A stretch of DNA of 64,000 bases from an uncultured Chitinophagales bacterium (GTDB taxonomy: Bacteria; Bacteroidota; Bacteroidia; Chitinophagales; BACL12): positions 24,427 through 88,426 of the forward strand of contig CAZXBG010000002.1 of the NCBI GenBank assembly GCA_964638865.1. Reading direction: 5' to 3'. Position 1 is the stretch's first letter; the number at the start of each line of letters is the position of its first letter. This document shows positions 946-54,992 of this stretch, one piece after another. Under the pieces are notes generated by a model. That model did not search any database, was not told where the DNA came from, and saw only the letters and a program-made list of their open reading frames with translations. A program made the position numbers and the translations under genes.

Positions 946-1002
946 TCCTATATCCTATATCCTATGTCCTATTTCCTATATCCTATTTCCTAAGTCCTGT
1001 TT
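946..1002. repeat. Tandem heptamer array TCCTATN x8
   Basis: tcctata tcctata tcctatg tcctatt tcctata tcctatt tcctaag tcctgtt read directly. The array ends 38 nt before the ATG at 1041. Confidence 0.9.
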
Positions 1003-1040
1003 CATGCTTTTTCTTTAATTTTACGGTAAAATAAAACAAT

Positions 1041-2408
1041 ATGGATTTCATCAATAATTATATCGAAACAAACAAAGATCGTCTCCTCGAAGAGTTACTC
1101 GCCCTTCTGCGCATTCCAAGTGTTAGTGCAGATCCTAAATACAAAGAAGATGTTGCGCGTTGCGCGGAAGCGGTTGCAGAAAGTTTAAGAAAAGCAGGTG
1201 CCGATAATGTAGAGGTTTGCGCAACAGCTGGTCACCCCATCGTTTTCGGACAAAAAATAATTGATCCTGCAAAACCAACTGTGCTTTGTTACGGACATTA
1301 TGATGTGCAACCTGCGGATCCCGTTTCTCTTTGGGATTCACCTCCTTTTGAACCTGTGATTAAAGATGGGAATATTTATGCCCGTGGAGCATGTGATGAT
1401 AAGGGGCAAGTATATATGCACGTAAAAGCTTTTGAAGCTATGATGCAAAATAATGCCTTGCCATGTAATATTAAATTTATTATAGAAGGAGAGGAGGAAG
1501 TTGGTTCTGCACATTTAGGAGAATTTATTTCTGAGAATAAAGAAAAATTAAAATGCGATGTTATTTTAATTTCAGATACTTCCATTATCGCAAATGATGT
1601 TCCGAGTATTACGGTTGGATTAAGAGGATTGAGTTATATGGAAGTGGAAGTTACAGGTCCTAATCGCGATCTGCATTCAGGGGTTTATGGAGGAAGTGTT
1701 GCAAATCCAATTAATACTTTATGTGATATGATATCTTCTTTAATTGATAAGGACGGACATATTACCGTAAAAGGATTTTATGACGACGTGGAAATTGTGA
1801 CGGAGGCAGAAAGAAAAGAAATGAGTAAAACTCCTTTTGATCTGGAAGAGTATAAAAAAGATCTTGGTGTTAATGAAGTGAAGGGCGAAAAAGATTATAC
1901 TTCACTTGAACGTGTTTCCATACGACCAACTTTAGATGTTAATGGAATTTGGGGAGGATATACCGGGGAGGGAAGTAAAACTGTTTTACCTTCCAAAGCC
2001 TTTGCAAAAATTTCAATGCGTTTGGTTCCGCATCAGGAGTCGCATAAAATTGCAGATCTTTTTGAAGCGCACTTTAAAGCCATTGCACCCGATTATGTAA
2101 AGGTAAAAGTAACACATCACCATGGTGGTGAACCGGTAGTTGTTCCGATGGATTTTCCGGCATTACAGGCAAGTGCAAAAGCAATGGAAAAAACTTTTGG
2201 TAAAAAACCAATACCAACGCGTGAAGGAGGAAGTATTCCAATTGTTGCTTTATTCGAAAAAGTATTAGGCGCAAAAAGTATTTTAATGGGATTTGGATTG
2301 AACAGTGATAATATACATTCACCAAATGAAAAGTATGGCCTCTTCAATTATTACAAGGGCATAGAAACATTACCTTGGTTCTTTAAATATTATTCGGAGA
2401 TGGATTAA
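1041..2408 (+). CDS. M20 family metallopeptidase (dipeptidase type)
   Basis: 455-aa ORF with YGHYDVQPAD, ARGACDDKG and EGEEEVGS metal-ligand motifs typical of M20 dipeptidases (ArgE/DapE/CNDP clan). Confidence 0.88.
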   Translation: MDFINNYIETNKDRLLEELLALLRIPSVSADPKYKEDVARCAEAVAESLRKAGADNVEVCATAGHPIVFGQKIIDPAKPTVLCYGHYDVQPADPVSLWDSPPFEPVIKDGNIYARGACDDKGQVYMHVKAFEAMMQNNALPCNIKFIIEGEEEVGSAHLGEFISENKEKLKCDVILISDTSIIANDVPSITVGLRGLSYMEVEVTGPNRDLHSGVYGGSVANPINTLCDMISSLIDKDGHITVKGFYDDVEIVTEAERKEMSKTPFDLEEYKKDLGVNEVKGEKDYTSLERVSIRPTLDVNGIWGGYTGEGSKTVLPSKAFAKISMRLVPHQESHKIADLFEAHFKAIAPDYVKVKVTHHHGGEPVVVPMDFPALQASAKAMEKTFGKKPIPTREGGSIPIVALFEKVLGAKSILMGFGLNSDNIHSPNEKYGLFNYYKGIETLPWFFKYYSEMD

Positions 2409-2501
2409 ATTATAATATATCTTCGATGGAAGTTGAAAATTATCCATAGGTATCATAGAGCTACTTTATTATTATTTCTGTGGAGTAGCACCATACATCA
2501 T

Positions 2502-2533
2502 TACCACAGAGTTACCGAAGTAACTCTGTGGTA
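2502..2533. other. Perfect 14-bp stem / 4-nt loop hairpin between convergent genes
   Basis: TACCACAGAGTTAC-cgaa-GTAACTCTGTGGTA. No flanking T/A run, so it is not a canonical terminator. Confidence 0.6.
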
Positions 2534-2572
2534 GGTATTATTGATGTAATCAGGATGAATTCGATCTTGCAG

Positions 2573-2950
2573 TTAATTAGGAATCACTAATTCCTGTCCA
2601 ACTTTAATCATATTTGGATCATTCAGTTTATCTCTGTTCGCTTCAAAAATTTTCATATAACTATTTGCATCACCATATGCACTTTTTGCAATCTTACTCA
2701 AAGTGTCGCCGGATTCTACTTTATGAATACCATAAATAGAATTATCAGTTACATTTATATCAGCAACTAGGTCGGAAGGATTTTCCCCTCCATCTTTTTT
2801 TATTGCATCCCACAATATGTCTTTTTCAAGTTGGTATTGAGTAGTGCCTCCAATATTTAATTTGCCATTTTCTTCAGTCACATAACCATCTTTGATCTGT
2901 AACTTCTCGCCAAGCGCAAGGGCGTTCTTATATTTATCTTTTAATGTCAT
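2573..2950 (-). CDS. LysM peptidoglycan-binding domain protein (YgaU/Kbp-like layout)
   Basis: C-terminal HKVESGDTLSKIAKSAYGDANSYMKIFEANRDKLNDPNMIKVGQELVIP is a canonical LysM domain. The short N-terminal domain resembles the BON-like part of YgaU. Confidence 0.8.
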   Translation of the reverse strand: MTLKDKYKNALALGEKLQIKDGYVTEENGKLNIGGTTQYQLEKDILWDAIKKDGGENPSDLVADINVTDNSIYGIHKVESGDTLSKIAKSAYGDANSYMKIFEANRDKLNDPNMIKVGQELVIPN

Positions 2951-3005
2951 AATGTTATAAATGTAATAAAATTATCTATAGATTCCAATTTTAACGAAAG
3001 TTTAT

Positions 3006-4544
3006 TTAACTCAACAATATTTCTCCGCTCATTTCCGGTGGAATATCCAATCCCATTATGGTTAACAGGGTAGGAGCAATATCTCCCAACTTTCCGTTTT
3101 TTATTGCAGTAAATTTATTATCATTGGAAATATAAAATACAGGAACGGGGTTTGTGGAGTGTTGTGTATTTGGTGTTCCATCTTCATTTATTTCGTTGTC
3201 TGAATTTCCATGATCAGCTGTGAGTATCACATCGTAGTTATTTTCTAATGCAGCCTCTACAACTTCACCCACACAAGTATCAACCGCTTCGCAGGCCTTT
3301 ATTGCCGCTGAAAATATTCCGGTATGTCCAACCATATCGGCATTTGCAAAATTCAGGCAAATAAAATCTGTTTCCTTTTTATTAAGCTCTGCAACAATTG
3401 CATCCTTTACTAGGTAAGCACTCATTTCAGGCTGAAGATCATAGGTTGCAACCTTAGGAGAAGAAATCATAATTCTTTTTTCTCCTTCAAATTCTTTTTC
3501 TCTGCCACCACTAAAGAAAAAAGTGACATGCGGATATTTTTCTGTTTCCGCAATTCTGATCTGTTTTAATTTATTATTCTCAATAATTTCACCAAGTGTT
3601 TTCGAAAGATCATTTTTTTCAAATAACACGCCAATGTTTGTCCAGCTGTGATCGTACATCGACATCGTAATATAATGGAGATCGATTTTAAACATTTCAA
3701 ATTCGGGAAAATTTTGTTGTGTTAATACAGTTGTAATTTGTCTGCATCGATCTGTTCTGAAATTAAAAACGATAACTACATCGTTTGATTTAATTGTTGT
3801 AATTGGATCATTATTATCATCCACACAAACAATGGGTTTAATAAATTCATCTGTAATATCTTCCTTATAATTATTTTCTAAACTTTTAACAGGATCTTTT
3901 GTTGGAGTTCCTTTACCATGTACCAATAGATCATACGCAAGTTTTATGCGTTCCCAGCGTTTATCTCTGTCCATGGCAAAATATCTTCCACAAACACTTG
4001 CAATTTTACCACCCGTAATTTTTAAATGGGTATCCAACTTTTTAATAAATCCACTTCCACTTTTAGGATCACAATCTCTTCCATCTGTAAATGCGTGAAT
4101 AAATACTTTATCCATATTCGCATTTTCATCTTTTAAAATTTCACACAATCCAACCAAATGATTAATATGCGAATGCACTCCACCATCACTTACCAAACCC
4201 ATTAAATGAATATTTTTATTATTTGCGTTTGCATATTCAATTGCATTCAATAAAACTTTATTTTTAGCAAGTTCTCCGTTTTTAATTGCAAGTGTTATTC
4301 TTTGTAGTTCCTGGTAAACAATTCTGCCCGCTCCTAAATTAAGATGTCCAACTTCACTGTTTCCCATTTGTCCTTCAGGCAATCCTACAAATTCACCATC
4401 TGTTCTCAATTCCGCATTTGGATATTTTTTGTAATAATTATTTACATTCGGAGTAAAAGCCTGCGCGATAGCAGAAGCTGCAGCATTTTTACCATGTCCC
4501 CAACCATCCATGATGATCAGCATCGCCCGTTTATTCATATTCAT
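3006..4544 (-). CDS. gpmI: 2,3-bisphosphoglycerate-independent phosphoglycerate mutase
   Basis: MNMNKRAMLIIMDGWGHG.., SDGGVHSH and ADHGN motifs. Start moved to the ATG at 4544, because the 44-codon extension in track ORF 3006..4676 runs through repeat words. Confidence 0.93.
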   Translation of the reverse strand: MNMNKRAMLIIMDGWGHGKNAAASAIAQAFTPNVNNYYKKYPNAELRTDGEFVGLPEGQMGNSEVGHLNLGAGRIVYQELQRITLAIKNGELAKNKVLLNAIEYANANNKNIHLMGLVSDGGVHSHINHLVGLCEILKDENANMDKVFIHAFTDGRDCDPKSGSGFIKKLDTHLKITGGKIASVCGRYFAMDRDKRWERIKLAYDLLVHGKGTPTKDPVKSLENNYKEDITDEFIKPIVCVDDNNDPITTIKSNDVVIVFNFRTDRCRQITTVLTQQNFPEFEMFKIDLHYITMSMYDHSWTNIGVLFEKNDLSKTLGEIIENNKLKQIRIAETEKYPHVTFFFSGGREKEFEGEKRIMISSPKVATYDLQPEMSAYLVKDAIVAELNKKETDFICLNFANADMVGHTGIFSAAIKACEAVDTCVGEVVEAALENNYDVILTADHGNSDNEINEDGTPNTQHSTNPVPVFYISNDNKFTAIKNGKLGDIAPTLLTIMGLDIPPEMSGEILLS

Positions 4545-4560
4545 TACCACAAAGATAGGA

Positions 4561-4758
4561 ATCGTGAGGCGTGAATCGTGAGGTGTGAGTCCGAAAAGTT
4601 CTAGGTGAAGAAACTCACTTTGTGAATGGTGAGTGGTCAGTGGTGAGTGACATCCTATAAGGATCAAACTCTCCAACTCACCACTGAAAACTCACTGAGA
4701 GTATAAACTTTCGGCCATTGATAGTTAAAACTCATTACTCATTACTCATTACTCATTT
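4561..4758. repeat. Divergent intergenic block built from heptamer word arrays plus a 12-bp inverted repeat
   Basis: atcgtga ggcgtga atcgtga ggtgtga (4561-4588). tgtgaat ggtgagt ggtcagt ggtgagt (4621-4648). TCAGTGGTGAGT (4637-4648) pairs with ACTCACCACTGA (4676-4687). ctcatta x4 (4731-4758). Confidence 0.9.
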
Positions 4759-4831
4759 CGTGATTGTTAAACTTTTCTTAATTTTGGTATGGTTTTAGCA
4801 AATTCAGTGCATTGACCAAACAATAACAAAC

Positions 4832-5233
4832 ATGACAAAATTTAAATTTAAAAAGGCATCTCTTCTTCTGTTGGCATTGCCACTTTTGATATTTGCAACA
4901 GCAACAGGTGATTTAGATAATATTTCTGCCGCTATAAAAGCCGGAAATTCAAAAGCCTTAGCTGAATATTTCGACAATACTGTTGAAGTAAAGATTGCCA
5001 ACAAAGAAGGCGCATACAGTAAAAGCCAAGCAGAAGCGATCGTAAAAGATTTTTTTACAAAAAACCCGCCTAAAACTTTCAAATTTATTCACGATGGTCC
5101 ATCTGGCGGAAATAATGCACATTATGCAATAGGTTCGCTTGGCACTGATAAAGGTAAATTCAGAACTTATGTTTACCTGAAAAAAGTTGGCGATAAATTC
5201 GTGATACAGGAATTAAGTTTCGAAAATGAGTAG
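4832..5233 (+). CDS. Small secreted protein, DUF4783-like
   Basis: Signal peptide, then GDLDNISAAIKAGNSKALAEYFDNTVEV... It overlaps the nadC start by 8 nt, an arrangement I recall for DUF4783 genes. Confidence 0.6.
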   Translation: MTKFKFKKASLLLLALPLLIFATATGDLDNISAAIKAGNSKALAEYFDNTVEVKIANKEGAYSKSQAEAIVKDFFTKNPPKTFKFIHDGPSGGNNAHYAIGSLGTDKGKFRTYVYLKKVGDKFVIQELSFENE

Positions 5234-6083
5234 TGTTGAAATATGGGATCTGCTCGATATTATTGACGAGGCCCTCATAGAAGACATACAGGAAGGTGAT
5301 CACACAACGCTGGCCACTATTGATCATGAAGCCACCGGAACAGCAAAACTTTTAATCAAACAACCTGGTATAATAGCCGGCGTTGAATTAGCTGAACAAA
5401 TTTTAAAACATGTCAACCCCGAACTCGAGGTTGACATTGTTATTCCCGATGGTGCTAAAGTGGAACCCGGGGATATTGCTTTCACCGTTTTCGGGCGTGT
5501 TCAGGCGCTCTTAGTTGCCGAACGAACCATGCTTAATTTTATGCAACGTATGAGTGGTATCGCGACAAAAACTAACACTTTTGTGCAAAAAGTAAGGTAT
5601 ACCAATGCCAGGATTCTCGATACCAGAAAAACAACTCCGGGTCTTCGAAATTTTGAGAAATGGGCTGTGAGAATAGGCGGGGGACACAATCACCGTATGG
5701 GTTTATATGATATGATCATGATCAAAGACAATCATATCGACTTTTGCGGAGGAATCGAAAACGCAATCAATAAGGTTCGCCAATATCTCGAAGAAAACGA
5801 ACTGGAACTTAAAATAGAAGTAGAAACACGAAATATTGATGAGGTTTGGCAGGTGCTCAGGACTGGTGGTGTGGATCGTATTATGCTTGATAATTTTGCT
5901 GTAAATAATATGAAAGAAGCAGTGGATGCCATTGCCGGTCAATTTGAAACCGAGGCTTCCGGTGGTATCAATATTGATACCGTGCTCGCTTATGCCGAAA
6001 CAGGCGTGGATTTTATTTCAATTGGTGCACTTACTCATTCAGTAAATAGTCTAGATCTTAGTTTTAAGGCTGTTATGGACTAA
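5226..6083 (+). CDS. nadC: Nicotinate-nucleotide diphosphorylase (carboxylating)
   Basis: 285 aa. LDTRKTTPGLR, HRMGLYDMIMIKDNHI and MLDNF motifs of quinolinate phosphoribosyltransferase. Confidence 0.92.
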   Translation: MSSVEIWDLLDIIDEALIEDIQEGDHTTLATIDHEATGTAKLLIKQPGIIAGVELAEQILKHVNPELEVDIVIPDGAKVEPGDIAFTVFGRVQALLVAERTMLNFMQRMSGIATKTNTFVQKVRYTNARILDTRKTTPGLRNFEKWAVRIGGGHNHRMGLYDMIMIKDNHIDFCGGIENAINKVRQYLEENELELKIEVETRNIDEVWQVLRTGGVDRIMLDNFAVNNMKEAVDAIAGQFETEASGGINIDTVLAYAETGVDFISIGALTHSVNSLDLSFKAVMD

Positions 6084-6189
6084 AATGTTAATTTATGCCG
6101 TTGTTAATACTTGTTTTCCAGACCTGAATTGCCCTTTTATAGCCCCAGACCCTTAATTATTTATTACCTTTGTATAAATTAATTAAACT

Positions 6190-8118
6190 TTGAGGGAGCA
6201 ACTTTTTCATATACAGGTTTTGTTAAAGCGGCTTGGCATCCTGTTGATTCTCTATTCGGTTTGCCGTATCCTGTTTTTTATATTCAACAAAGATCTTTTC
6301 CCCCATATTCCTCCCGGCGATTTTCTGCAAATCATGTTTCATGGTTTGCGTTTCGATATTTCCTCCATTATTTATGTGAATTTTATTTTTATTCTGATGC
6401 ATATTTTGCCAAGTCCCTGGTTTGATAAAAACTGGTATCAGCGCATTCTCAGAATATTGTTTTATGTTTTTAATGGAGTTGCTCTTATGCTCGAGAGCGG
6501 CGATTTTATTTATTACCGTTATGGTTTAAAACGCACCTCAACACATGAACTTGGCCTTACCAGCGATACTAATATTTTACCTCAGGTAATTCAAGATTAT
6601 TGGATCGTGTTTGTAATAGCATTTTTATTAGTTGCTGCAATTGAATATTTATACCGCAAAACAGATCTTCATCGGGCAAAAAAATTAAAATTTACCTTAC
6701 CACGGTTGATACATTATCCTTATCAACTTGTATTTATGTTGGTGGTTTTGGTGTTTTCAGTAATTGGTGCACGAGGTGGTATTCAGGCTAAACCACTTTC
6801 ACCCAACAGCGCTTCATTATACGTAACAGATAGTCGTTTAACATCACTTATAATTAATACGCCTTTCTCAGTAATTTATGCCTTCGGTCACAGGCAATTA
6901 CAGGAACCAAAATATTTTGAAGAGGCGGAACTTCAACAAAAGTTTTCGCCTGTTCATCAAAATGCAACTTTTTACCAGTGGCCCGATTCCATTAAAAAAT
7001 CAGGACAACCCGATAATATTTGCGTAATTATACTGGAAAGTTTTTCTAAAGAATATATTGGATATTTTAATAAAGGGACAGGTTATACTCCATTTCTCGA
7101 TAACCTCTTAACGCAGGGTTTGTGTTTCACTAATGCGTTTTCTAATGGTAAATCTTCCAATCAGGGAATTGTTGCAATTACAAGTGGAATTCCTGTTTTA
7201 ATGGAAGAACCCTTTGTTTCCTCTATTTATCAGAACAATCAGATTGAGGGGATTGGGACTTTAATAAAAAAAGTTGGATATTCCTCAGCATTTTTTCACG
7301 GAGCAAATAATGGTTCCATGCAGTTTGACCGTTTAATGGCGCAAGCGGGAATTGAACAATATTTCGGAAGAAATGAATATGGAAATGATGCTGATTTTGA
7401 TGGCAATTGGGGAATATTTGATGAACCTTTTCTTAAATGGACTGCCAGTGAAATGAGCACCTTGAAACCACCTTTTTATAGTCAGATATTTACCATTTCC
7501 TCACATCATCCATTTACTGTACCTCAGCAACATAAAGGAAAATTTAAGAAGGGTGTAATTCCAATGTTGGAAGTTGTTGGTTATGCAGATTATGCATTGG
7601 AGCAATTTTTTATTGAAGCAAAAAAACAGCCTTGGTATAATAATACCCTTTTTATTTTAACCGCCGATCATCCCGGACCACCTTTGCCGGAACAAGAATT
7701 TTATCAGGAACAGGTTGGATCACATGCTACCTGGATGTTGATTTATAAACCGAATGGACAATTTAGTGGAACTAATGATATGGTGGTTCAGCAAACGGAT
7801 ATTCCGGCTACAATATTAGATTATGTTGGATATTCCGGCAAATTTATGGCATATGGAAACTCTGTGTTCGACACTACTGCTGTTCGTTATGTTTACAATT
7901 ACCATTCATCAGATTACATGATCATAAATGATGATTTTGCATTACAATTTGACGGCTCCAGATCCATAGGATTATATCAATATAAATCGGATAGCTCATT
8001 AAATGATAATTTATTGTTCGAATATCCTGATATTACTGCAACTATGGAAGATAAATTAAAGGCAATTATTCAAACCCACCACGAAGCGATGGTTAGGAAT
8101 AAATTGATACCGGAGTGA
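6190..8118 (+). CDS. LTA synthase / sulfatase-family phosphoglycerol transferase-like membrane protein
   Basis: Polytopic hydrophobic N-terminus followed by an alkaline-phosphatase-type domain (VIILESF, NGKSSNQG, ILTADHPGP). TTG start as in the track. Confidence 0.78.
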   Translation: MREQLFHIQVLLKRLGILLILYSVCRILFFIFNKDLFPHIPPGDFLQIMFHGLRFDISSIIYVNFIFILMHILPSPWFDKNWYQRILRILFYVFNGVALMLESGDFIYYRYGLKRTSTHELGLTSDTNILPQVIQDYWIVFVIAFLLVAAIEYLYRKTDLHRAKKLKFTLPRLIHYPYQLVFMLVVLVFSVIGARGGIQAKPLSPNSASLYVTDSRLTSLIINTPFSVIYAFGHRQLQEPKYFEEAELQQKFSPVHQNATFYQWPDSIKKSGQPDNICVIILESFSKEYIGYFNKGTGYTPFLDNLLTQGLCFTNAFSNGKSSNQGIVAITSGIPVLMEEPFVSSIYQNNQIEGIGTLIKKVGYSSAFFHGANNGSMQFDRLMAQAGIEQYFGRNEYGNDADFDGNWGIFDEPFLKWTASEMSTLKPPFYSQIFTISSHHPFTVPQQHKGKFKKGVIPMLEVVGYADYALEQFFIEAKKQPWYNNTLFILTADHPGPPLPEQEFYQEQVGSHATWMLIYKPNGQFSGTNDMVVQQTDIPATILDYVGYSGKFMAYGNSVFDTTAVRYVYNYHSSDYMIINDDFALQFDGSRSIGLYQYKSDSSLNDNLLFEYPDITATMEDKLKAIIQTHHEAMVRNKLIPE

Positions 8119-8999
8119 AAAAAAATATTTTGTTTATTGTTAATCCTGTAGCAGGAGTTAAACGAAAGGATAAAATTCCGCCACTTATTAATAAATTTCT
8201 CAACCACGATAAATTTAATTACGAAGTTGTATATACCGAAAGTCGGGGACATGCAACAGAAATTGCACGTCAGGCGGTGGTCGATAAATTTGATGTAGTT
8301 GCAGTTGCAGGAGGTGATGGAAGTGTAAATGAGGTTGCAACCGGTTTATTGGGGAGTGAAACTGCTCTTGCAATTATACCAAGTGGATCAGGTAACGGAC
8401 TTGCGAGGCATCTCGGATATTCTATTAATATCAGATCAACTTTGGAAATTATTAACGATTACCAATTAAAAAAAATTGATGTTTGTAAAGTAAACGATTT
8501 TTATTTTTTTAGTTTGATTGGAATTGGATTTGATGCCTTTGTTGCAAAGGTTTTTAGCAAGGAGGAAACGAGAGGGTTTTTAACCTATTTTTGGAGTGCC
8601 ATTAAAAGTATTTCTTCATTTGAACCATTCGAATATTCTTTTAATTCTGTAGAAAAAACTTTTAAAGGCAAGGCGTTTATGATTAATTTGTGCAATTCAA
8701 ATCAATATGGATACAATGTTAAAGTTGCTCCATTTGCGAGTTTGAACGACGGTTTAATGGATATAGTTCTAGTGGATAATATTCCAAAATGGAAAGTACC
8801 TTTTGCAGTGATCCGGGTTTTTACAGGAACACATTTGCGCAGTAAACATTTTACTACTTTTAAGACTAAGGAAGTATTGATAGAATCGCCGAATTATACC
8901 TATTTACAAATTGATGGTGAAACAGTCCCTAAAGATAAATCGTTTAAGGTGAGTATTATTCCCGGCGGATTAAATGTATTGGTTAATTCAAAAAAATAA
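8115..8999 (+). CDS. Soluble diacylglycerol/lipid kinase, YegS/BmrU/DgkB (DAGK_cat) family
   Basis: NPVAG.., VAVAGGDGSVNEV and IPSGSGNGLAR motifs. The GTG start overlaps the upstream TGA (GTGA). Confidence 0.85.
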   Translation: MKKNILFIVNPVAGVKRKDKIPPLINKFLNHDKFNYEVVYTESRGHATEIARQAVVDKFDVVAVAGGDGSVNEVATGLLGSETALAIIPSGSGNGLARHLGYSINIRSTLEIINDYQLKKIDVCKVNDFYFFSLIGIGFDAFVAKVFSKEETRGFLTYFWSAIKSISSFEPFEYSFNSVEKTFKGKAFMINLCNSNQYGYNVKVAPFASLNDGLMDIVLVDNIPKWKVPFAVIRVFTGTHLRSKHFTTFKTKEVLIESPNYTYLQIDGETVPKDKSFKVSIIPGGLNVLVNSKK

Positions 9000-9007
9000 T
9001 TATTCGA

Positions 9008-9349
9008 ATGGCAAAAAAGAACAAGGATAAGTTCGGATTTGTTTTTTCTACTGATCCGGATTTTAAATTTGAAAAAGATTCAATATCGCAAAATACGCTT
9101 CCTCCTCAACAACAAGACCTTAGAATATGGTTGGAAAAAAATCACCGGGGAGGTAAGACGGCATGTGTAATTAAAAATTTTGTGGGAAGTGAGGAAGACC
9201 TTGAAAAGTTGGGAAAAGAACTAAAAACAAAGTGTGGTACGGGTGGTTCTGTTAAAGATGGTGAAATAATTATTCAGGGTGATCAACGTAAAAAATTAGG
9301 GGAGATATTGGCTAAGCTTGGTTATAAATATAAATTAGCCGGTGGGTAG
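9008..9349 (+). CDS. SUI1/YciH-type translation initiation factor
   Basis: 113 aa. LRIWLEKNHRGGKTACVIKNF..CGTGGSVKDGEIIIQGDQR matches the SUI1 fold signature. Confidence 0.85.
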   Translation: MAKKNKDKFGFVFSTDPDFKFEKDSISQNTLPPQQQDLRIWLEKNHRGGKTACVIKNFVGSEEDLEKLGKELKTKCGTGGSVKDGEIIIQGDQRKKLGEILAKLGYKYKLAGG

Positions 9350-9406
9350 AAGGCAATGAAGGAATGAAATAAAGAAGGTGGAAGGATATTTAATCGCTTC
9401 CACCTT
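9350..9406. terminator. GAAGGNNN word array running into a 10-bp stem hairpin between convergent genes
   Basis: aaggcaat gaaggaat gaaataaa gaaggtg gaagg starts directly after the SUI1 stop codon. AAGGTGGAAG (9375-9384) pairs with CTTCCACCTT (9397-9406). AT-rich tails lie on both sides. Confidence 0.5.
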
Positions 9407-9428
9407 ATTAATTTAATTTGATCAGTAT

Positions 9429-11186: not shown

Positions 11187-11203
11187 AATTTTAATTTAAA
11201 TTT

Positions 11204-13039: not shown

Positions 13040-13290
13040 AAAAATTGAAATTATATGTATATACAAAGAAATTGATTAAAAAGGAAAAAACAGATGACTT
13101 TCGTTCTGTAAACAGGAAACTATAGTCACCAATTGAACAATGTTCATTAGAAAAATTTTCAGCAAATAGGGTTAAGGCTGTACGTAAAAAAGAGACAGGA
13201 TATTATGATTTGCAGATGATCAATTGATACATATATCAATTTAAGAATATCCCAACACGATATGTAAATGGGTCATAAAAAAGTAGACAT

Positions 13291-13626
13291 TTATGCAATT
13301 CGAAGCCCGTTTTCAATTGTTTTATCAGGGTGAAGTAAAATAACAGATCCGTCAAGCTGCATCACTCCCAATACAAGGCATTCACTGAAGAAATTGGCAA
13401 TTTGTTTGACAGGAAAATTTACAACCGCTACAATTTGTTTACCGATCAATACTTCCTTATCATAGTGAACGGTGATTTGTGCACTGGACCTTTTTATTCC
13501 AAGATCGCCGAAATCAATGGTGAGCTGAAAAGCTGGTTTTTTAGCTCCGGGAAATTCCTGAACCTCCAAAATAGTACCCGTTCTGATCTCCAATTTTTCA
13601 AAATCGTTATACGTAATTTTTTCCAT
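13291..13626 (-). CDS. tRNA-binding (CsaA/EMAP-type OB-fold) protein
   Basis: MEKITYNDFEKLEIRTGTILEV..AKKPAFQLTIDFG..SSAQIT is typical of CsaA-like tRNA-binding domains. The ATG at 13626 lies 1 nt after the upstream stop. Confidence 0.8.
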   Translation of the reverse strand: MEKITYNDFEKLEIRTGTILEVQEFPGAKKPAFQLTIDFGDLGIKRSSAQITVHYDKEVLIGKQIVAVVNFPVKQIANFFSECLVLGVMQLDGSVILLHPDKTIENGLRIA

Positions 13627-13627
13627 A

Positions 13628-14854: not shown

Positions 14855-15055
14855 GAGTAAACTAAAACTAATTTAAAATTACATATTTTTATTGAACAGA
14901 TTTACTTTTTTAGACAATTCAAAGTGCTGAATTACACGCATTTAGCTTAAACGAATCTTTTTAACTTAATCTTGTGCACAATCTGTTTAAAAATACCTGC
15001 CTTTTTTTGCATCTTCATTTGGGCTTCTTTCGAATTTAGCCGACCTTTAAAAAAA

Positions 15056-19093: not shown

Positions 19094-19114
19094 TTTGTAA
19101 ACATACTTATTAAG

Positions 19115-38071: not shown

Positions 38072-38092
38072 ATTAACTCTATTAATAATGAG

Positions 38093-38128: not shown

Positions 38129-38244
38129 AATAAATAAGTTTTCTTCTTCGGATGGTCAAATAAATAACTTACTATTTTATACAAACAACCAAGGTTCGCC
38201 AAATTCCAGTTAATTTAACCCAGAACTTTGAACCAGTGGAAGTT

Positions 38245-38354: not shown

Positions 38355-38378
38355 ATTTGTCAACCCGGAACCCAGAAC

Positions 38379-49842: not shown

Positions 49843-51156
49843 ATGGCTGAAGTAATAAGAATGCCCCGAATGAGTGATACAATGACTGAGGGAACCTTTG
49901 TGGAATGGCATAAAAAAGTGGGCGACACAGTGAAAAACGGGGATATTCTTGCAGAAGTGGAGACCGATAAGGCGACCATGGAGTTGGAGAATTATGTGAA
50001 GGGAACGCTTTTATACATTGGTGTGGAGAAAGGAAAAAGTGCGCAGGTGGATCAGGTTATTGCAATTGTTGGCGCTCCGGGAGAAGATTTTCAGGCTTTA
50101 TTAACCGAGGAAAAATCAAAAGCGGAAGAAAAAACAGAGTCGCCGGAAAAGAAAGAAGAAACACCGAAAAAAGAAGAGGATAATACCGAGAAGAAAGAAG
50201 AAGCTACGGTAGAAAAAAAGGAAGAAGAAAAAGCAGAAGTTAAACAGGAAAAAAGTGCCGAAATAAAAGAGAGCGACGACGAAAGAATTAAAGTTTCGCC
50301 TCTCGCAAAAAAAATTGCAGGGGATAAAGGAATTAATTTAAGTGATGTTTCAGGATCGGGTCCGGAAGGTAGGATCATTAAAAAAGATGTAGAAAATTTT
50401 GTTCCTCAAGTAACAGAAAAAGAAAAAGTGGAACAAAAAATTCCGCGCATGGAATTGCGGGAATCTTTTGGAGAAGAAAGTGCAGAAGATGTTCCGGTAT
50501 CGCAAATGCGTAAAGTAATTGCAAAACGCCTTTCGGAAAGTATGTTTAGTGCTCCGCATTTTTATTTAACGGTATCTATTAATATGGATGCTGCAATAAC
50601 TTCGCGAAAAGCATTAAATGATGTGAGTCCGGTTAAAATTTCATTTAATGATCTTGTTGTAAAAGCATGTGCCATGGCATTGCGTCAACATCCAAATGTA
50701 AATTCGAGTTGGATGGGTGATACGATCAGAATAAATAAACATATAAATATTGGGGTGGCAGTTGCAATTAACGACGGACTTGTTGTTCCGGTAATTCGTT
50801 TTGCAGACAATAAATCGCTTGCACAAATTGCCACAGAAACAAATGATCTTGCAGCACGCGCAAAAAGCAGAAAATTACAACCAAGTGAATGGGAGGGAAA
50901 TACTTTTACTATTTCCAATTTAGGCATGATGGGGATAGATGAATTTACTGCAATAATAAATCCTCCCGATGCATGTATTCTTGCCGTGGGTGGAATTAAT
51001 CAGGTGCCTATAGTGAAAAACGGAGTTATTGTAATTGGCAACATTATGAAGGTCACCATGAGTTGCGATCATCGCGCTGTTGACGGCAGTGTTGGTGCTA
51101 AATTTTTGCAAACACTGAAGCAGTATCTCGAAGAACCGGTGCGGATGTTGCTTTGA
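49843..51156 (+). CDS. 2-oxoacid dehydrogenase complex E2 (dihydrolipoyl acyltransferase)
   Basis: Lipoyl domain with ..EVETDKATME.., K/E-rich linker, E3/E1-binding domain (VSPLAKKIA), catalytic ..SCDHRAVDG... Start at MAEVIRMPRMS. Confidence 0.9.
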   Translation: MAEVIRMPRMSDTMTEGTFVEWHKKVGDTVKNGDILAEVETDKATMELENYVKGTLLYIGVEKGKSAQVDQVIAIVGAPGEDFQALLTEEKSKAEEKTESPEKKEETPKKEEDNTEKKEEATVEKKEEEKAEVKQEKSAEIKESDDERIKVSPLAKKIAGDKGINLSDVSGSGPEGRIIKKDVENFVPQVTEKEKVEQKIPRMELRESFGEESAEDVPVSQMRKVIAKRLSESMFSAPHFYLTVSINMDAAITSRKALNDVSPVKISFNDLVVKACAMALRQHPNVNSSWMGDTIRINKHINIGVAVAINDGLVVPVIRFADNKSLAQIATETNDLAARAKSRKLQPSEWEGNTFTISNLGMMGIDEFTAIINPPDACILAVGGINQVPIVKNGVIVIGNIMKVTMSCDHRAVDGSVGAKFLQTLKQYLEEPVRMLL

Positions 51157-51158
51157 GG

Positions 51159-51179
51159 GGTGAATGGTGAATGGTGAGT
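51159..51179. repeat. Tandem heptamer GGTGAAT x3
   Basis: ggtgaat ggtgaat ggtgagt begins about 3 nt after the E2 stop codon. Confidence 0.8.
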
Positions 51180-51296
51180 CTGGAACTGCTAACATGAGAG
51201 CGTATAACACCTGCAGTAGAATTAGTTAATTCTTCCATTGAAAATTTATCAATAAGAAATTATATTAATGTTACGATAATTTTTTTGGAAGAGAAT

Positions 51297-51333
51297 GTCA
51301 TTGCGAGACATTGCGAAGCAATGTCGAAGCAAG
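51297..51333. repeat. ATTGCGA-AGCAAT hairpin word element
   Basis: GACATTGC-gaa-GCAATGTC (51307-51325) within gtcattgcgagacattgcgaagcaatgtcgaagcaagc. This resembles a repeat word I recall being common in Bacteroidota intergenic DNA. Confidence 0.5.
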
Positions 51334-51362
51334 CTTTTCAGTGTTACTTGGTTTATCAAAAA

Positions 51363-51714
51363 AAGGATAATTCAATTGGAAATTAAATTATCATTCCAAC
51401 TCCAATTTCTTCGCAAAACTTCGTGTCATTACGCCTTCGTGGCAAAAAAATTATCCAATAGAAAATTAAGTTATTGGTAGCATGATAATTTCGCTCCGGA
51501 ACCTATGTCAGGTGAAAAACACCTGGCTACGGCGTTGAGAAAGGATAATTCAATTGGAAATTAAATTATCATTCCAACTCCAATTTCTTCGCAAAACTTC
51601 GTGTCATTACGCCTTCGTGGCAAAAAAATTATCCAATAGAAAATTAAGTTATTGGTAGCATGATAATTTCGCTCCGGAACCTATGTCAGGTGAAAAACAC
51701 CTGGCTACGGCGTT
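51363..51714. repeat. Perfect tandem duplication, 174-bp unit, 178-bp period
   Basis: 51363-51536 and 51541-51714 are identical by eye, separated by gaga. Each unit holds three hairpins: GATAATT..AATTATC, CCAATA..TATTGG and CAGGTG-aaaaa-CACCTG. Confidence 0.9.
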
Positions 51715-51766
51715 AAATTTTAATGAAAAGGAAAAACTAAAATTTTCCTCCCAACTCAAAGCACCC

Positions 51767-51794
51767 ATTGTCAATTGTCGATTATCAATTGTCA
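51767..51794. repeat. Tandem heptamer ATTGTCA x4
   Basis: attgtca attgtcg attatca attgtca ends 5 nt from the stop codon of the minus-strand gene at 51800. Confidence 0.85.
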
Positions 51795-51799
51795 ATTAA

Positions 51800-52090
51800 T
51801 CATGCGATTATTACATCATGTATACACATCACCGGAAGGTACACTCCGCCTTTTAATAAAACAAAATCTTCAGTGGCTGTCCAGACGGTGGTTTCTACCT
51901 GAAAAATTCCTTGTTTACATTCGAAAATGATCTTTACTTTTGTATGGTAATTGTTACCCAAGATCATGGCATCATATAAAATGTGTTTTCTGCGATTAAT
52001 ATAATCAGGATGATTAAGTACATCATGATAAATTAATTCCAGAAAAGGAATTTGTTCTTTTTCAATGGTTGTAATAGTTTCTAATTGCAT
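51800..52090 (-). CDS. Hypothetical small protein
   Basis: 96 aa from MQLETITTIEKEQ. The longer track ORF would overlap the divergent CoA-binding gene, so the internal ATG at 52090 is preferred. Confidence 0.5.
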   Translation of the reverse strand: MQLETITTIEKEQIPFLELIYHDVLNHPDYINRRKHILYDAMILGNNYHTKVKIIFECKQGIFQVETTVWTATEDFVLLKGGVYLPVMCIHDVIIA

Positions 52091-52173
52091 AGCTGTGGTT
52101 TTTTTGAACGATTTACTACAGCCGGTTGTTTCATTAGGCAAGTTATAACCTTTTTTTAAATAAATAAAATATT

Positions 52174-52533
52174 GTGAAAAAAACTTTGGTATTAGGAGCT
52201 TCACCCAATCCTGAACGATATGGCAATATGGCCGCCCGTAAACTCAAAGCATACGGGCATGAAGTGGTTGCTGTTGGGAAAAGAGAATCAAAAATAGATG
52301 ATATCAATATTCTGAAAGAATTTCCAGTTTTGGACGATGTTGATACGGTAACCCTGTACCTCAATCCGGATAATCAAAAAGAATACTACCAAAGAATCAT
52401 AGCCCTGCATCCTAAACGCATCATTTTCAACCCCGGAACGGAAAATGAGGAATTGGAAGAAATGGCGAGGGAAAAGGGTATTGAAACGGTAGAGGGATGT
52501 ACTTTGGTGATGCTTTCTACAGGACAGTTTTAA
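52174..52533 (+). CDS. CoA-binding domain protein (YccU-like)
   Basis: KKTLVLGASPNPERYGNMAARKLKAYGHEV..V.LYLNP.. Rossmann-type CoA-binding signature. GTG start. Confidence 0.8.
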   Translation: MKKTLVLGASPNPERYGNMAARKLKAYGHEVVAVGKRESKIDDINILKEFPVLDDVDTVTLYLNPDNQKEYYQRIIALHPKRIIFNPGTENEELEEMAREKGIETVEGCTLVMLSTGQF

Positions 52534-52538
52534 GCCGA

Positions 52539-52581
52539 GGGCAGTGAGTGACAGTGTGCAGTTGGCAGTGGCAGTGGGCAG
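52539..52581. repeat. GCAGT-based word array, second locus
   Basis: gggcagtgagtgacagtgtgcagttggcagtggcagtgggcag starts 5 nt after the CoA-binding gene stop. It is followed (52641-52700) by a tail similar to the one after the 38245 array. Confidence 0.8.
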
Positions 52582-52762
52582 ATTGTTTACCTCTACATTT
52601 TTTGTTTCGAATAAAATTTTATTAGGCAGTTGCCTTTACCGGCAGGCAGATTGTCGGAACTCACACTATATCTTCGTAGAAAACTCAAAACTCAGAACAC
52701 ATAGCTAAATAATACTTTATTTACCTTTGAGCATTCCTTAACAACTAAAGTCAATAACACAA

Positions 52763-53434
52763 TTGAAATCATCCATCTCCTATACTGAAGAAAATTACCT
52801 GAAGGCAATTTTTAAATTGTCGGAGATGCAGAAGGAGAATGTTTCTACCAATGCTATTTCGGAAAAATTATTGACCACTGCCGCTTCGGTTACTGATATG
52901 CTGAAAAAATTATCGGGGAAAAAATTAATTCACTACGAAAAATATTACGGAGTTTCCTTAACGGATAAAGGAAAAAAAATGGCAAAGGACCTCATTCGCA
53001 AACACCGATTATGGGAAACATTTTTGGTAGATACATTAAAATTTAGTTGGGATGAAGTGGATGAACTCGCAGAACAATTAGAACATATTAATTCAGAAAT
53101 TCTGACTGATCGGATTGATAATTTTCTCGGCAATCCGAAATTCGATCCGCATGGAGATCCTATTCCTGATAAGGACGGAAATATTGCCTATCACGAGGAT
53201 GTCACCTTAGATAAAATGCAAAAAGGGGACATAGGAATTATTTCCGCAGTTATAGATCACTCCACTCAATTTCTTCAATATCTCAACAAAGTAGATTTGG
53301 TAATACACACCAAAATAAAAATTAAAGACGATGAAGACTATGATCAAAGCAAGATCATAATCATTAACAATAAAAAAGAATTAGTTGTCTCGCAAAAAGT
53401 TGCTTCGAATTTATTAGTCAGGAAGATAAAATAA
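52763..53434 (+). CDS. DtxR/MntR-family metal-dependent repressor with C-terminal FeoA/SH3-like domain
   Basis: ..YTEENYLKAIFKL.. HTH, ..RKHRLWETFLVD.. dimerisation/metal helix, ..DPHGDPIP... TTG start. Confidence 0.85.
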   Translation: MKSSISYTEENYLKAIFKLSEMQKENVSTNAISEKLLTTAASVTDMLKKLSGKKLIHYEKYYGVSLTDKGKKMAKDLIRKHRLWETFLVDTLKFSWDEVDELAEQLEHINSEILTDRIDNFLGNPKFDPHGDPIPDKDGNIAYHEDVTLDKMQKGDIGIISAVIDHSTQFLQYLNKVDLVIHTKIKIKDDEDYDQSKIIIINNKKELVVSQKVASNLLVRKIK

Positions 53435-53471
53435 GTTTGACGCAAAGCATTCGCCATAGTCAATTATTCCA

Positions 53472-53498
53472 CCATTCTCCATTCTCCATTCTCCATTG
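53472..53498. repeat. Tandem heptamer CCATTCT x4
   Basis: The array abuts the RDD gene stop codon (53499-53501). Its reverse complement GGAGAAT is one mismatch from the GGTGAAT array at 51159. Confidence 0.85.
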
Positions 53499-53951
53499 TT
53501 AAACCGTGTTTCCCTTCACCAAACTTTTCACATCCACAACCATTGTATTTGTCCATTTGTCGTGCCAGCCGGTTTGTGAACCTAACATGGAAAAGGGTTC
53601 GAATGGAACGAAGCGGGAGAAGCTTCTCCCGAGTGCCTGATTTGCCGATATTTTTTCGAGGTCTGCTGATCGAACTACAACTGTGCCGGTAATGAATTTA
53701 CCCACAGTCCTTCCAAAAGTAGCTTCCATAATAGCATAATAAAGAAAAAATATACAATAAAAGAGGAAATAAAATCGTCCGGCCGATGCATCAGGACCGA
53801 AGGTAGGCAACATTAAAATTATGAGAATGATGATTAGCATGATAGCTACATAATCTAAAATAAAATTTACGAGGCGCTTCCAGGTTGCGGCCAGTTCATA
53901 GCTGGATTCGTTTTCGATATTAAGGCTGTCGAGTGGATTTTGGTTTTCCAT
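53499..53951 (-). CDS. RDD family membrane protein
   Basis: 150 aa, ..WKRLVNFILDYV.. followed by two TM helices and GRTVGKFITG. Confidence 0.7.
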   Translation of the reverse strand: MENQNPLDSLNIENESSYELAATWKRLVNFILDYVAIMLIIILIILMLPTFGPDASAGRFYFLFYCIFFLYYAIMEATFGRTVGKFITGTVVVRSADLEKISANQALGRSFSRFVPFEPFSMLGSQTGWHDKWTNTMVVDVKSLVKGNTV

Positions 53952-54016
53952 GTGTGGTTATTTTGGAGCTAATATACCGTAAAATTTAAATACGCAGGAA
54001 AACATTCTAATGTAAA

Positions 54017-54880
54017 TCAAATTTTCTGAATTTTTACCTCTCTATTCACTCCACTGCTTCGTTTCAAATAAACTGAATAAATAAATGCGCCTAAAAAGAA
54101 TATCCCCAGCATGGTAACCATTGCACCGGATATTGAAGCATTTAAAATTACTGCAAAATAGTAACCGCTAATGCTTGATGCTACCCCGAAGGCAGCTGCT
54201 AACCATAACATGGTTTTTAATTTATGGGTAATTAAATATGCTGTTGCACCCGGAACAATTAAAAAGGCAACAACTAAAATTGCACCAACACTTTCAAAGG
54301 ATAATACAGTTGTAAGGGATACGGCTCCCATTAATAAATAATGCCAAAGTACAACCGAAATACCTATTGTAGCTGCATAGTCGGGATCGAAAGTAGTGAG
54401 GTATAATCCTTTATAACCTATCACAATAAATAATATAACCAGTATAAATAATCCGCCTAACATCCACACCGCAGTCGGAATATTTAACCATGTTTCAAAA
54501 TTTATAAAAGTAATATCACCATATAAAACACATTCCTGATCTAAGTCCACTTTATCTGCAAAATAAGTGATTAAAATAACACCAATGGCAAACAACCAGG
54601 TAAAACTGATTCCTATACTTGCATCCTCCTGCAATTTTGCTTTTTTATGAAATAATTCTATTAAAACCGTACACAACATTCCGAATGCTGCTGCTCCAAT
54701 TAACATGGGAACAGAATTGCGAGAACCCGAAATTAAAAATGCAATTGCAATTCCCGGCAATACCGCATGCGAAATTGCATCGCCCACCATTGCCATTCGC
54801 CGTAAAATTAAAAAGCATCCCAACAAGCCGGAGGTTATTGCTACTAAGCTACCTGTTACTATTATCCAAAATGCATCCAT
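54017..54880 (-). CDS. Metal ABC transporter permease (TroD/ZnuB-like)
   Basis: 287 aa, 8-9 TM, ..GDAISHAVLPGIA.. signature of cluster A-I metal permeases. Confidence 0.9.
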   Translation of the reverse strand: MDAFWIIVTGSLVAITSGLLGCFLILRRMAMVGDAISHAVLPGIAIAFLISGSRNSVPMLIGAAAFGMLCTVLIELFHKKAKLQEDASIGISFTWLFAIGVILITYFADKVDLDQECVLYGDITFINFETWLNIPTAVWMLGGLFILVILFIVIGYKGLYLTTFDPDYAATIGISVVLWHYLLMGAVSLTTVLSFESVGAILVVAFLIVPGATAYLITHKLKTMLWLAAAFGVASSISGYYFAVILNASISGAMVTMLGIFFLGAFIYSVYLKRSSGVNREVKIQKI

Positions 54881-54957
54881 GTTTTATTTTGTTGTTCTGT
54901 TTTTCATTATAGGTGTATTGAAAGTAATGGATATGAATGAAAAAATGAGTCGAATAA

Positions 54958-54992
54958 GGGATATGGGACACGGGACAAGATACACGGGATTT
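54958..54992. repeat. Degenerate heptamer array GGGANNN x5 inside the operon gap
   Basis: gggatat gggacac gggacaa gatacac gggattt lies in the 214-bp spacer between the two permease genes. Confidence 0.7.

Follow-up and report, generated by a model that had tools for sequence, protein, structure and literature searches.

Reports of tandem heptamer arrays lying next to genes are scattered (Nostoc, Xanthomonas and Beggiatoa) and come without an explanation. The intervening sequences (IVS) of 23S rRNA of the Leptospira and Coxiella type, which carry an open reading frame (ORF) of the PF05635 family, are excised by RNase III. Here, we describe tandem arrays of 7- and 8-nucleotide (nt) units in the spacers of a 64,000-nt stretch of DNA from an uncultured Chitinophagales bacterium (contig CAZXBG010000002.1; the whole stretch is referred to as the window), where one inverted pair of arrays encloses a PF05635 gene. 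The arrays link repeats of the short tandemly repeated repetitive (STRR) type with rRNA intervening sequences and with a large family of orphan proteins, all three poorly understood, and the link can be tested in cultivable Mucilaginibacter, Pedobacter or Nostoc.

An excess of heptamers in prokaryotes was described by Mrazek (2007), who, according to the summary given in PMC4679880, proposed polymerase slippage. In Xanthomonas (GGGAATC) and Nostoc PCC 7120 (GGGGA(C/T)T), arrays of about four units are ~90% intergenic, mostly 0 to 50 bp from an ORF, and sometimes overlap its stop codon; some form inverted pairs, and position is conserved while length and sequence vary between close relatives (Rehm 2015, PMC4692102). 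The same study found the G-rich strand to be the non-coding one upstream of ORFs and the coding one downstream, offered no explanation and described the function as unknown. The arrays studied here resemble those repeats in being heptameric, in their proximity to ORFs, in the strand rule, in forming inverted pairs and in varying in length at conserved positions. They differ in that each genome has many units, most of them unable to form G-quadruplexes, in that octamers are common among relatives, in not being underrepresented between divergent genes, and in the phylum. The link to PF05635 cassettes found here is unreported in Rehm 2015 (PMC4692102).

For Bacteroidota, a preliminary description of this DNA, made from the sequence alone, was not aware of an equivalent. 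However, MacGregor 2015 (PMC4679880) described heptamer repeats, TAACTGA among them, from Beggiatoaceae, Cyanobacteria and five Bacteroidetes, with other heptamer repeats assembled in spacers of Gramella, Aequorivita and Elizabethkingia. Like the TAACTGA repeats, our arrays lie near start and stop codons, have stops in three frames in one orientation and are missing at orthologous sites of relatives, although that study is concerned with one unit, for which it suggests a part in regulating translation. Hairpin pairing, chirality and the association with IVS protein genes are found here and undescribed there, and no TAACTGA arrays are present in the window. The likeness to the STRR repeats of heterocystous cyanobacteria, also suggested in the preliminary description, is sound as regards form (tandem heptamers in non-coding DNA) and extends to a heptamer-armed PF05635 cassette shared with Nostocales plasmids. 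However, the host is a member of the Chitinophagales, and the canonical units CCCCAGT, TTGGTCA and CAACAGT have no tandem copies in the window and a single chance match among relatives, so that the arrays are not members of the canonical STRR families. With heptamers dominant, an intergenic location and variation in length and sequence from relative to relative at conserved positions, the window fits the heptamer class of intergenic simple sequence repeats, whose units measure 5 to 11 nt.

The arrays are a real repeat class, with rules of position, polarity and chirality, change by whole units, a share that are hairpin arms and an association with PF05635/IVS genes. On balance, we read them as the Chitinophagales instance of the heptamer-class repeats of Nostocales (STRR, GGGGAYT), Xanthomonas (GGGAATC) and Beggiatoaceae (TAACTGA), probably with an IVS-type origin. 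The extension to Sphingobacteriia and Chitinophagia with many units is new, as are the array-specific G-first chirality of hairpins and the cross-phylum link between arrays and PF05635/IVS cassettes.

Position, polarity and chirality of the arrays

Arrays of the window were called with Tandem Repeats Finder (TRF) and compared with a hand-curated gene map (88% coding, with 56 kb of coding DNA and 7.6 kb of spacer). As the chance control, 100 dinucleotide-preserving shuffles per segment were run, with a cutoff of at least 2.5 copies and a score of at least 30. Spacers held 11 period-7 arrays versus a shuffle mean of 0.18 (maximum, 2). In coding DNA, the single period-7 array versus 0.71 expected is no excess, and periods other than 7 showed no comparable excess in the window. 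TRF recovered 11 of the 13 arrays listed in the preliminary description, and these intergenic 7- and 8-mers are real and non-random. The list was less accurate at 9349-9368 (weak) and 54958-54992 (not called by TRF), and it overlooked the array at 28022-28047.

Relatives were represented by 80 loci of up to 21 kb each, retrieved through an HmgA scan, from Sphingobacteriia, Chitinophagia and a few Flavobacteriia. The pooled set of window and relatives (81 genomes, 1.44 Mb, 87% coding) contained 254 non-overlapping arrays of period 7 to 9, with 196 of them intergenic. Equal frequency inside coding sequences would have told against the preliminary description, but array density in spacers exceeded that in genes ~26-fold, and only 28 arrays were truly interior to ORFs, of which 17 had period 9. 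They were common in Mucilaginibacter, in many Pedobacter and in metagenome-assembled genomes (MAGs) of Chitinophagales, while Empedobacter and several Chitinophaga and Pedobacter loci of the 80-locus set had none.

The normalized distance to the nearer gene boundary averaged 0.27 versus 0.5 expected (Kolmogorov-Smirnov [KS] test, P = 8e-23), and hence the position described earlier as "parked" against gene boundaries in the window is a general property across the 81 genomes. Where a spacer held a single array, the distance to a boundary was at most 10 nt for 48 of 67 arrays between co-directional genes and for 15 of 22 between convergent genes (medians, 3.5 to 6 nt). The co-directional spacers were bimodal, with 30 arrays in the fifth nearest the stop codon, 18 in the fifth nearest the start codon and 12 between. 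The shuffle and distance comparisons that the preliminary description had proposed gave both an excess and a boundary bias.

Polarity also followed a rule. The G-rich strand ran 5' to 3' away from the adjacent gene in 105 arrays of the pooled set and toward it in 10, distributed among boundary types as follows (G>C : C>G):

co-directional, stop: 39:5
co-directional, start: 26:3
convergent, stop: 22:2
divergent, start: 18:0

Counted as distinct units summed over the four types, the two sides stood at 82 and 10. Arrays no more than 10 nt after a stop codon had a sense-strand composition of 35% A, 30% T, 26% G and 9% C, with G exceeding C in 54 versus 9 (39 versus 7 when the hmgA flanks were excluded). 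Those no more than 25 nt before a start codon were G poor (6% G and 21% C; 46 versus 8), a difference that was not significant without the hmgA flanks (14 versus 6). In array-free spacers, composition was unskewed downstream of stops and only mildly skewed upstream of starts (12% G and 17% C).

Three simple causes were considered and rejected. Transcription-coupled deamination does not suit a skew that flips between the start and stop sides and in which A exceeds T, and Shine-Dalgarno-like content of the G-rich units was not enriched (17 observed versus 18.5 expected). An artefact of ORF calling was discarded because the hairpin chirality given below is independent of gene calls; besides, arrays absorbed into ORF starts were mixed in sign, and adding them left about 50:8 by our own tally. 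The polarity rule itself has been published for the heptamers of Xanthomonas and Nostoc (PMC4692102), and what is new is that it holds in another phylum for many unrelated units unable to form G-quadruplexes. The same rules apply to dozens of unrelated units and are therefore properties of the repeat class as a whole, tied neither to a particular motif nor to G-quadruplexes.

An inverted-complement partner within 1.5 kb was found for 72 of the 254 arrays (~28%) and a direct partner for 31. Inverted pairs fell into two spacing classes, one of about 10 to 150 nt (hairpins) and another of about 360 to 630 nt. By a measure that is strand symmetric and does not depend on gene calls, the G-rich arm was the 5' one in 46 of 52 pairs (46:6), including 31 of 31 short hairpins. 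An independent hairpin finder gave a G-first ratio of 42:3 for hairpins overlapping arrays, compared to 88:83 for 208 other intergenic hairpins, among which are terminators and elements resembling repetitive extragenic palindromes (REP). The preliminary description had noted the inverted GTACCAAT pair, but the large share of arrays that are hairpin arms went unnoticed. A Rho-proof hairpin, with its C-rich arm hidden once made, is compatible with paired arrays but not with the C-rich solo arrays of 5' leaders, and is retained only within the RNA-signal alternative considered below. A resemblance of GTTGNAA / TTNCAAC arms to integron attC sites was dropped, as it did not extend to the GTTRRRY core.

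PF05635 cassettes

The window has a PF05635 gene between hmgA and hppD (E = 8.6e-17; TIGR02436, E = 3e-21; a relative of PDB 2RLD). The family is that of the four-helix-bundle "23S rRNA intervening sequence protein" (IVP). The gene is enclosed by two inverted arrays:

26189-26236, minus strand: ATGTACCA-type array (TRF, 4.4 copies at 26192-26226), cassette arm, 12 nt upstream of the hppD start (26179)
26302-26655, minus strand: PF05635 gene of 117 amino acids (aa), enclosed by the two arrays
26781-26828, minus strand: TGGTACAT-type array (ATTGGTAC, 4.4 copies by TRF at 26792-26826), the other cassette arm, overlapping the hmgA stop (26825-26827)

The arms (GTACCAAT arrays) are 48 nt long and 81% complementary, and both the minimum free energy and the centroid RNA folds pair them in a stem around the entire ORF, which reaches from the hmgA stop codon to a point 12 nt short of the hppD start codon. 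Like a 23S IVS, the cassette has a four-helix-bundle ORF within a long stem of flanking inverted repeats. Unlike it, the cassette is C-first and is located between two protein genes, hmgA and hppD, and not in a 23S rRNA helix; Rfam detected no rRNA in the window.

An IVP gene was found at the same site in three related loci (labels beginning with L denote the retrieved loci and contigs), with arm units that differ yet are mutually complementary:

L011: ATGTACCG, expanded as 58-nt super-repeats
L012: AATTAGCC / GCTAATT
L013: GAAAATGTG / CACATTTTC

All nine ORFs of ~120 aa located between inverted arrays 360 to 630 nt apart belonged to PF05635; the remaining short ORF of this set codes for a DUF4288 protein. 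A profile search retrieved 15 IVP genes from the data set, 14 of them scorable. With 1185 control genes for comparison, the IVP flanks were the more complementary (P = 7e-10), and so were those of the five IVP genes that had not been ascertained through arrays (P = 0.001). This test uses an ungapped complementarity score, and Duplexfold energies of 140-nt flanks were dropped as too noisy (control median, -36 kcal/mol). In L036, a DUF4288 ORF (111 aa) lies within inverted AGTATCA / GATACTT arrays at 3676-4199 in an IVP-like layout, so the cassette design is not exclusive to PF05635.

A tblastn search against plasmids gave IVP matches mainly in Nostocales. Seven of the 11 that we inspected had inverted heptamer arms, all seven G-first; among the remaining ones, Pseudanabaena had direct arrays on both sides, two had a single array beside an insertion sequence and one was weak. 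The arms outside Bacteroidota were the following, the last of them in a true IVS:

Nostoc punctiforme, Nostoc C052 and Aulosira: (TCAGGAG)n / (CCTGACT)n
Anabaena sp. 90, between cas6 and cas4: (ACAGGTG)n / (CTGTCAC)n
N. edaphicum: (TAGGGAG)n / (CCCTACT)n
Stanieria: GGCAGAA type
Azospirillum, inside the 23S rRNA gene (confirmed with Rfam): heptamer-like, G-first, as in the intergenic cassettes

A PF05635 gene with heptamer arrays on both sides was seen between cas6 and cas4 of a CRISPR-Cas operon twice, in Anabaena sp. 90 pANA02 (L131) and in Pseudanabaena galeata pPg_01 (L138). A literature search found no paper on the association between heptamer arrays and PF05635.

Arrays of the window and their turnover

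Apart from the cassette arms, the window holds the following arrays:

946-1003, plus strand: TCCTATA, 6.7 copies (~7) by TRF, 38 nt before the start codon of the M20 peptidase gene (1041)
4559-4588, plus strand: GAATCGTGAGGCGT, a 14-mer of two heptamer variants, 2.1 copies by TRF, outer 5' hairpin arm
4622-4649, plus strand: GGTGAGT (GTGAGTG in TRF), 4 copies, 5' arm of the inner hairpin, with an ACTCACC-type partner at 4674-4700
4730-4757, plus strand: ACTCATT, 4 perfect copies, outer 3' arm of the nested hairpin, ~73 to 74 nt upstream of the DUF4783 start
9349-9410, strand unassigned: weak GAAGGNNN periodicity, 2.3 copies by TRF at 9349-9368, between SUI1 and a convergent gene
28022-28047, strand unassigned: AATTGAC / AATTGTC, 3.7 copies by TRF, 39 nt upstream of the hmgA start
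38234-38354, plus strand: GGCAGTN units, a 13-nt double unit in 9.2 copies by TRF; 13/20-nt super-units, ~9 copies
38362-38392, plus strand: AACCCAG / AACTCAG heptamers by TRF, overlapping the BASS stop
51159-51179, plus strand: GGTGAAT, ~3 copies (2.7 by TRF at 51159-51177), beginning 2 nt past the E2 stop
51767-51797, strand unassigned: ATTGTCA, 4.4 copies by TRF, abutting the stop of the 51800-52141 gene (minus strand), partly palindromic
52539-52581, plus strand: GCAGTGG-type units (TRF at 52547-52581), 5 nt past the stop of the CoA-binding gene
53472-53498, minus strand: CCATTCT, ~4 copies (3.7 perfect copies by TRF at 53472-53497), AGAATGG in the RDD sense orientation, directly adjoining the RDD stop (53499)
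54958-54992, plus strand: weak, degenerate GGGANNN, three or four units by eye, missed by TRF, 77 nt upstream of the ABC-3 start (54880, minus strand)

Distances to gene ends, checked with JGI gene calls and Pfam, agree in essence with those first given. Arrays follow stops at 0 nt (SUI1 and RDD), 2 nt (E2 and the 51800 gene), 5 nt (CoA-binding gene) and 24 nt (BASS, of the SBF family, 38379-39293) or overlap the stop (hmgA), and they precede starts by 12 nt (hppD), 35 nt (iPGM), 38 nt (M20 peptidase) and ~73 nt (DUF4783). The GGTGAAT array has the TGA of the E2 stop in phase with the TGA of its unit.

Regarding structure, the array at 4559-4588 is located in the divergent iPGM / DUF4783 spacer. 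The RNA fold of 4548-4831 (plus strand) gave -81.9 kcal/mol with a z score of -3.8, and its 4548-4790 part forms a nested hairpin in which GAATCGTGAGGCGT pairs with ACTCATT (4730-4766) via G-U pairs and GGTGAGT pairs with ACTCACC. The array at 28022-28047 is largely palindromic (hairpin). By RNA folding, the TCCTATA, CCATTCT, GGTGAAT and GCAGTGG arrays were unstructured; the first of these is G-free on the sense strand (fold z, +1.6 / +1.1).

The missing hairpin-plus-U terminators of the preliminary description were confirmed in part. Five of the seven gene ends that it named have no obvious intrinsic terminator, but terminator-like hairpins with a T run were found after SUI1 (~9374-9410) and at 38090-38125. 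The array at 9349-9368 runs into the 5' side of the former, which is bidirectional (AAGGTGGAAG...CTTCCACCTT; fold z, -3.3 / -5.2), while the array at 38234-38354 sits between the latter and the BASS stop (38379). Most arrays are either unstructured or without a T run and do not qualify as intrinsic terminators, the exceptions being these two separate hairpins. The two loci contradict the idea that arrays replace terminators everywhere; a protein-binding or insulator role is speculation. A generic terminator scan of positions 1-20000 gave 19 sites versus 13.3 expected, which is uninformative about the arrays. No Rfam family matched the whole window at the gathering threshold, and E-value searches of 660-1060, 4500-4860 and 51100-52800 gave just a chance snoRNA match.

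Units recur at several loci per genome and drift in concert at orthologous loci, against the strict locus specificity first proposed. In the window, GCAGTGG arrays with a common GCAGATTGT tail are found at 38234 and 52539, ATTGTCA is found at 28022 and 51767, and GGTGAAT, GGAGAAT (the rotated reverse complement of CCATTCT) and GGTGAGT are one mismatch apart; a GGNGANT group is present at three or four loci within the 64 kb. In the pooled set, similar units recurred in 18% of pairs within genomes versus 7% between genomes (P = 2e-5).

The nearest genomes to the window are MAGs of Chitinophagales or Bacteroidota, with 96 to 97% HmgA amino acid identity. DNA of the same population, located by exact-protein lookup in JGI and Logan assemblies of more than 10 samples (99.9 to 100% identity), allowed comparison of copy numbers between strains, and two arrays varied by exactly one unit. 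The CCATTCT array at 53472 is shorter by one unit (a 7-nt deletion) in L091 and L093, giving three or four copies in the population, and the array at 38234 lacks one 13-nt unit (at 38271) in L119. There was no further indel in tens of kilobases of near-clonal contigs (at least 99.9% identical), and strains at 98.6% and 96.6% identity had unchanged copy numbers in the arrays spanned. Exact one-unit differences in a nearly identical population point to slippage, in agreement with the slippage-prone spacers of the preliminary description. L110 and L111 likewise differed by one TCGGCTAA unit (9.2 versus 10.2 copies).

Arrays also differed at larger distances. The ortholog of the 28022 array in L011 (9930-9961; ~83% nucleotide identity) has 4.6 copies versus 3.7, and the positions of the 52539 and 53472 arrays are array-free in relatives at 79 to 89% amino acid identity. 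The hmgA-hppD spacer is 1 to 10 nt in several genomes and 70 to 330 nt in others, the longer ones being filled by arrays, TGTTGNAA / TTNCAACA hairpins, REP-like hairpins or IVP cassettes. In Mucilaginibacter it has a conserved bipartite layout, (GGNGAAA)n ... (CACTAATT)n.

Logan contigs tend to break in the arrays: L102, L103 and L106 start at 4736 or 4758, and six contigs end at 38329. The short-read contigs that end inside the ACTCATT and GCAGTGG arrays indicate that such repeats fragment metagenome assemblies; on the other hand, their hotspots of whole-unit indels could be used as strain markers.

Origin of the arrays and other spacer elements

In the IVS-type origin that we favor, hairpin elements with or without a small ORF would become installed in spacers that are natively a few nucleotides long. 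An element in such a tiny spacer must touch both genes, hence the boundary hugging, with its repeat arms then abutting both neighbors. Replication slippage would expand, contract and homogenize the arms, and loss of one arm may leave a solo array with the original polarity, unless solo arrays expanded independently under the same constraint. In a transcript, paired arms could form long double-stranded stems and act as RNase III-type processing sites, as in rRNA IVS, and processing of the window cassette would part the hmgA, IVP and hppD messages. Solo arrays, which are G-free before starts and C-poor and stop-rich after stops, are probably just tolerated and have at most a minor function.

Several observations weigh against this origin. 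It gives no cause for the G-outward polarity, and within the window, 10 arrays obey the rule, 2 are ties and 3 break it (3 of 13 scorable). The window cassette has the opposite chirality, most window arrays (TCCTATA, CCATTCT, GGTGAAT and GCAGTGG) have no inverted partner, and neither a transposase nor another mobilizing enzyme was found in the window. Folding energy showed no sense-strand preference (in co-directional array spacers, sense was more stable in 34 and antisense in 43), array spacers were no more structured than array-free ones, and arm-duplex energies were equal on both strands, with no consistent preference; among IVP cassettes, by our own count, the antisense strand was more stable in six and the sense strand in three. 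Ten orthologous Mucilaginibacter hairpins upstream of hmgA were conserved, with just one pair showing a double change. Finally, genes of relatives are crude longest-ORF calls, and the 80 loci are syntenic around hmgA, so that counts are not phylogenetically independent, a problem softened by the distinct-unit counts (82:10). Given the absence of strand preference and of structural excess, an RNA-level role is hypothetical, and the data agree just as well with an origin at the level of DNA or through mutation alone.

A bolder version, which we put forward only tentatively and consider unlikely, is that the heptamer and octamer spacer arrays of Bacteroidota, Cyanobacteria (STRR type) and some Proteobacteria are arms, or decayed single arms, of one widespread family of IVS-like hairpin cassettes, whose full-length members have a PF05635 (Avd-like) gene. 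Such cassettes might insert on their own into rRNA helices, operon spacers and even the stretch between cas genes, G-first order might be a signature of how they are made or mobilized, and the protein might act on the arms (binding, protection or propagation). If true, a large family of orphan proteins would gain a function, and STRR-type repeats, unexplained since 1990, an origin.

Arrays could instead be selected cis-acting RNA signals, which we judge doubtful. Those after genes would provide three-frame stops and, on the opposite strand, C-rich Rho loading against antisense transcription, those before genes would be G-free leaders, and paired stems would serve processing or stability. In arrays no more than 10 nt after stops, stop triplets were sense only in 29 and antisense only in 10 (P = 0.003), and the base compositions given above point the same way (G 26% and C 9% after stops; G 6% and C 21% before starts, versus 12% and 17% in array-free spacers). 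On this view, G-free arrays before starts would serve as unstructured leaders free of start codons, for initiation independent of Shine-Dalgarno sequences in Bacteroidota. The conserved (GGNGAAA)n ... (CACTAATT)n layout across Mucilaginibacter species and the five of seven gene ends without an obvious intrinsic terminator could be read likewise. However, polarity is the same at starts and stops and strand symmetric, so one geometric rule suffices; orthologous sites in relatives are array-free, Shine-Dalgarno-like sequences are not enriched (17 versus 18.5), and two arrays have ordinary terminator-like hairpins beside them.

Neutral slippage, in which chance duplications arise in place and are tolerated outside genes but are lethal inside them when not a multiple of three, would need neither an element nor a function, and seems quite unlikely. 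Whole-unit polymorphisms, fast turnover between relatives, the lack of structural excess in array spacers and the near absence of period 7 and 8 arrays from ORFs, where period 9 is tolerated, are what it predicts, and the proposal of Mrazek 2007, as summarized in PMC4679880, was of this kind. What it fails to predict is the boundary hugging (KS P = 8e-23), the 105:10 polarity, which array-free spacers lack, the 72 inverted partners with their 42:3 chirality, the recurrence of units at separate loci or the association with PF05635 in three phyla.

Phase variation, with copy number switching the neighboring genes, is very improbable. One-unit differences were indeed seen at two arrays in near-clonal DNA, but the neighbors are housekeeping genes (hmgA, hppD, E2, SUI1 and iPGM) and not surface or restriction genes, most arrays lie past stop codons, so that a change in their length has no reading frame or promoter spacing to alter, and most are invariant over more than 10 samples and in strains at 96.6 to 98.6% identity; Rehm 2015 (PMC4692102) was likewise negative for Xanthomonas and Nostoc. 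An artefact of short-read metagenome assembly can practically be dismissed, since, even if short-read contigs often end within arrays and a perfect 178-bp duplication at 51362-51714 is single copy in six other contigs, the arrays are identical in independent JGI and Logan assemblies of many samples and are also present in the genomes of related isolates and in completed plasmids of cyanobacteria.

That duplication (2.0 tandem copies, 100% identical) is single copy in all six other contigs spanning it (L091, L092, L093, L095, L096 and L098) and represents a rare variant or else arose in the assembly of the source contig. Part of its unit (51361-51469, also 51539-51647) recurs inverted at 766-824 (52 to 58 nt, 74 to 82% complementary). 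The dispersed element (766-850, 51361-51469) has a TTTTTTGCCACGA...CACGAAG motif and no match in Rfam.

Like REP and bacterial interspersed mosaic elements (BIME), the arrays include small palindromic spacer elements, often just past stops, in genome-specific families. They differ in that REP arms are unique palindromes whereas array arms are tandem 7- to 9-mers of varied units. REP elements make up families of near-identical, imperfect palindromes that a REP-associated tyrosine transposase (RAYT) mobilizes. The window also has a hairpin of the REP-like CGTCATTGCGAGGAACGAAGCAATC... family (51290-51335, GTCATTGCGAG...CGAAGCAATG), which is not built of tandem repeats; CGTCATTGCGAGGAACGAAGCAATC hairpins are abundant in spacers of Mucilaginibacter and Pedobacter (L022, L026, L031, L053, L062, L066 and others). 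No Y1/RAYT gene was found among the Pfam-annotated genes of the window, while relatives L051 and L053 have REP hairpins flanking a RAYT-like ORF. This 180-aa ORF (L053 2457-3217, L051 1928-2470) is flanked by GTAGAGACGCGATACTTCGCGTCTC palindromes, has weak similarity to RAYT (NF047646), below the cutoff, and looks like a REPtron-like unit in Mucilaginibacter.

Upstream of hmgA in Mucilaginibacter, the loop of the leader hairpin has a AAAACTATTC motif conserved across 10 aligned loci, and a small ORF (MSIQMHF...SFRDA.LAKIVLAQY) precedes the hairpin in L067 (9720-9836) and L037 (9259-9486); together, they may be a dedicated hmgA leader or regulatory element. Elsewhere in the window, an ice-binding protein gene (PF11999, 37286-38071) would fit a cold habitat of the source population, and two adjacent Por_Secre_tail genes contain a 280-nt direct repeat (9693-9972 / 11456-11735, 79% identical) that corresponds to their paralogous C-terminal secretion domains.

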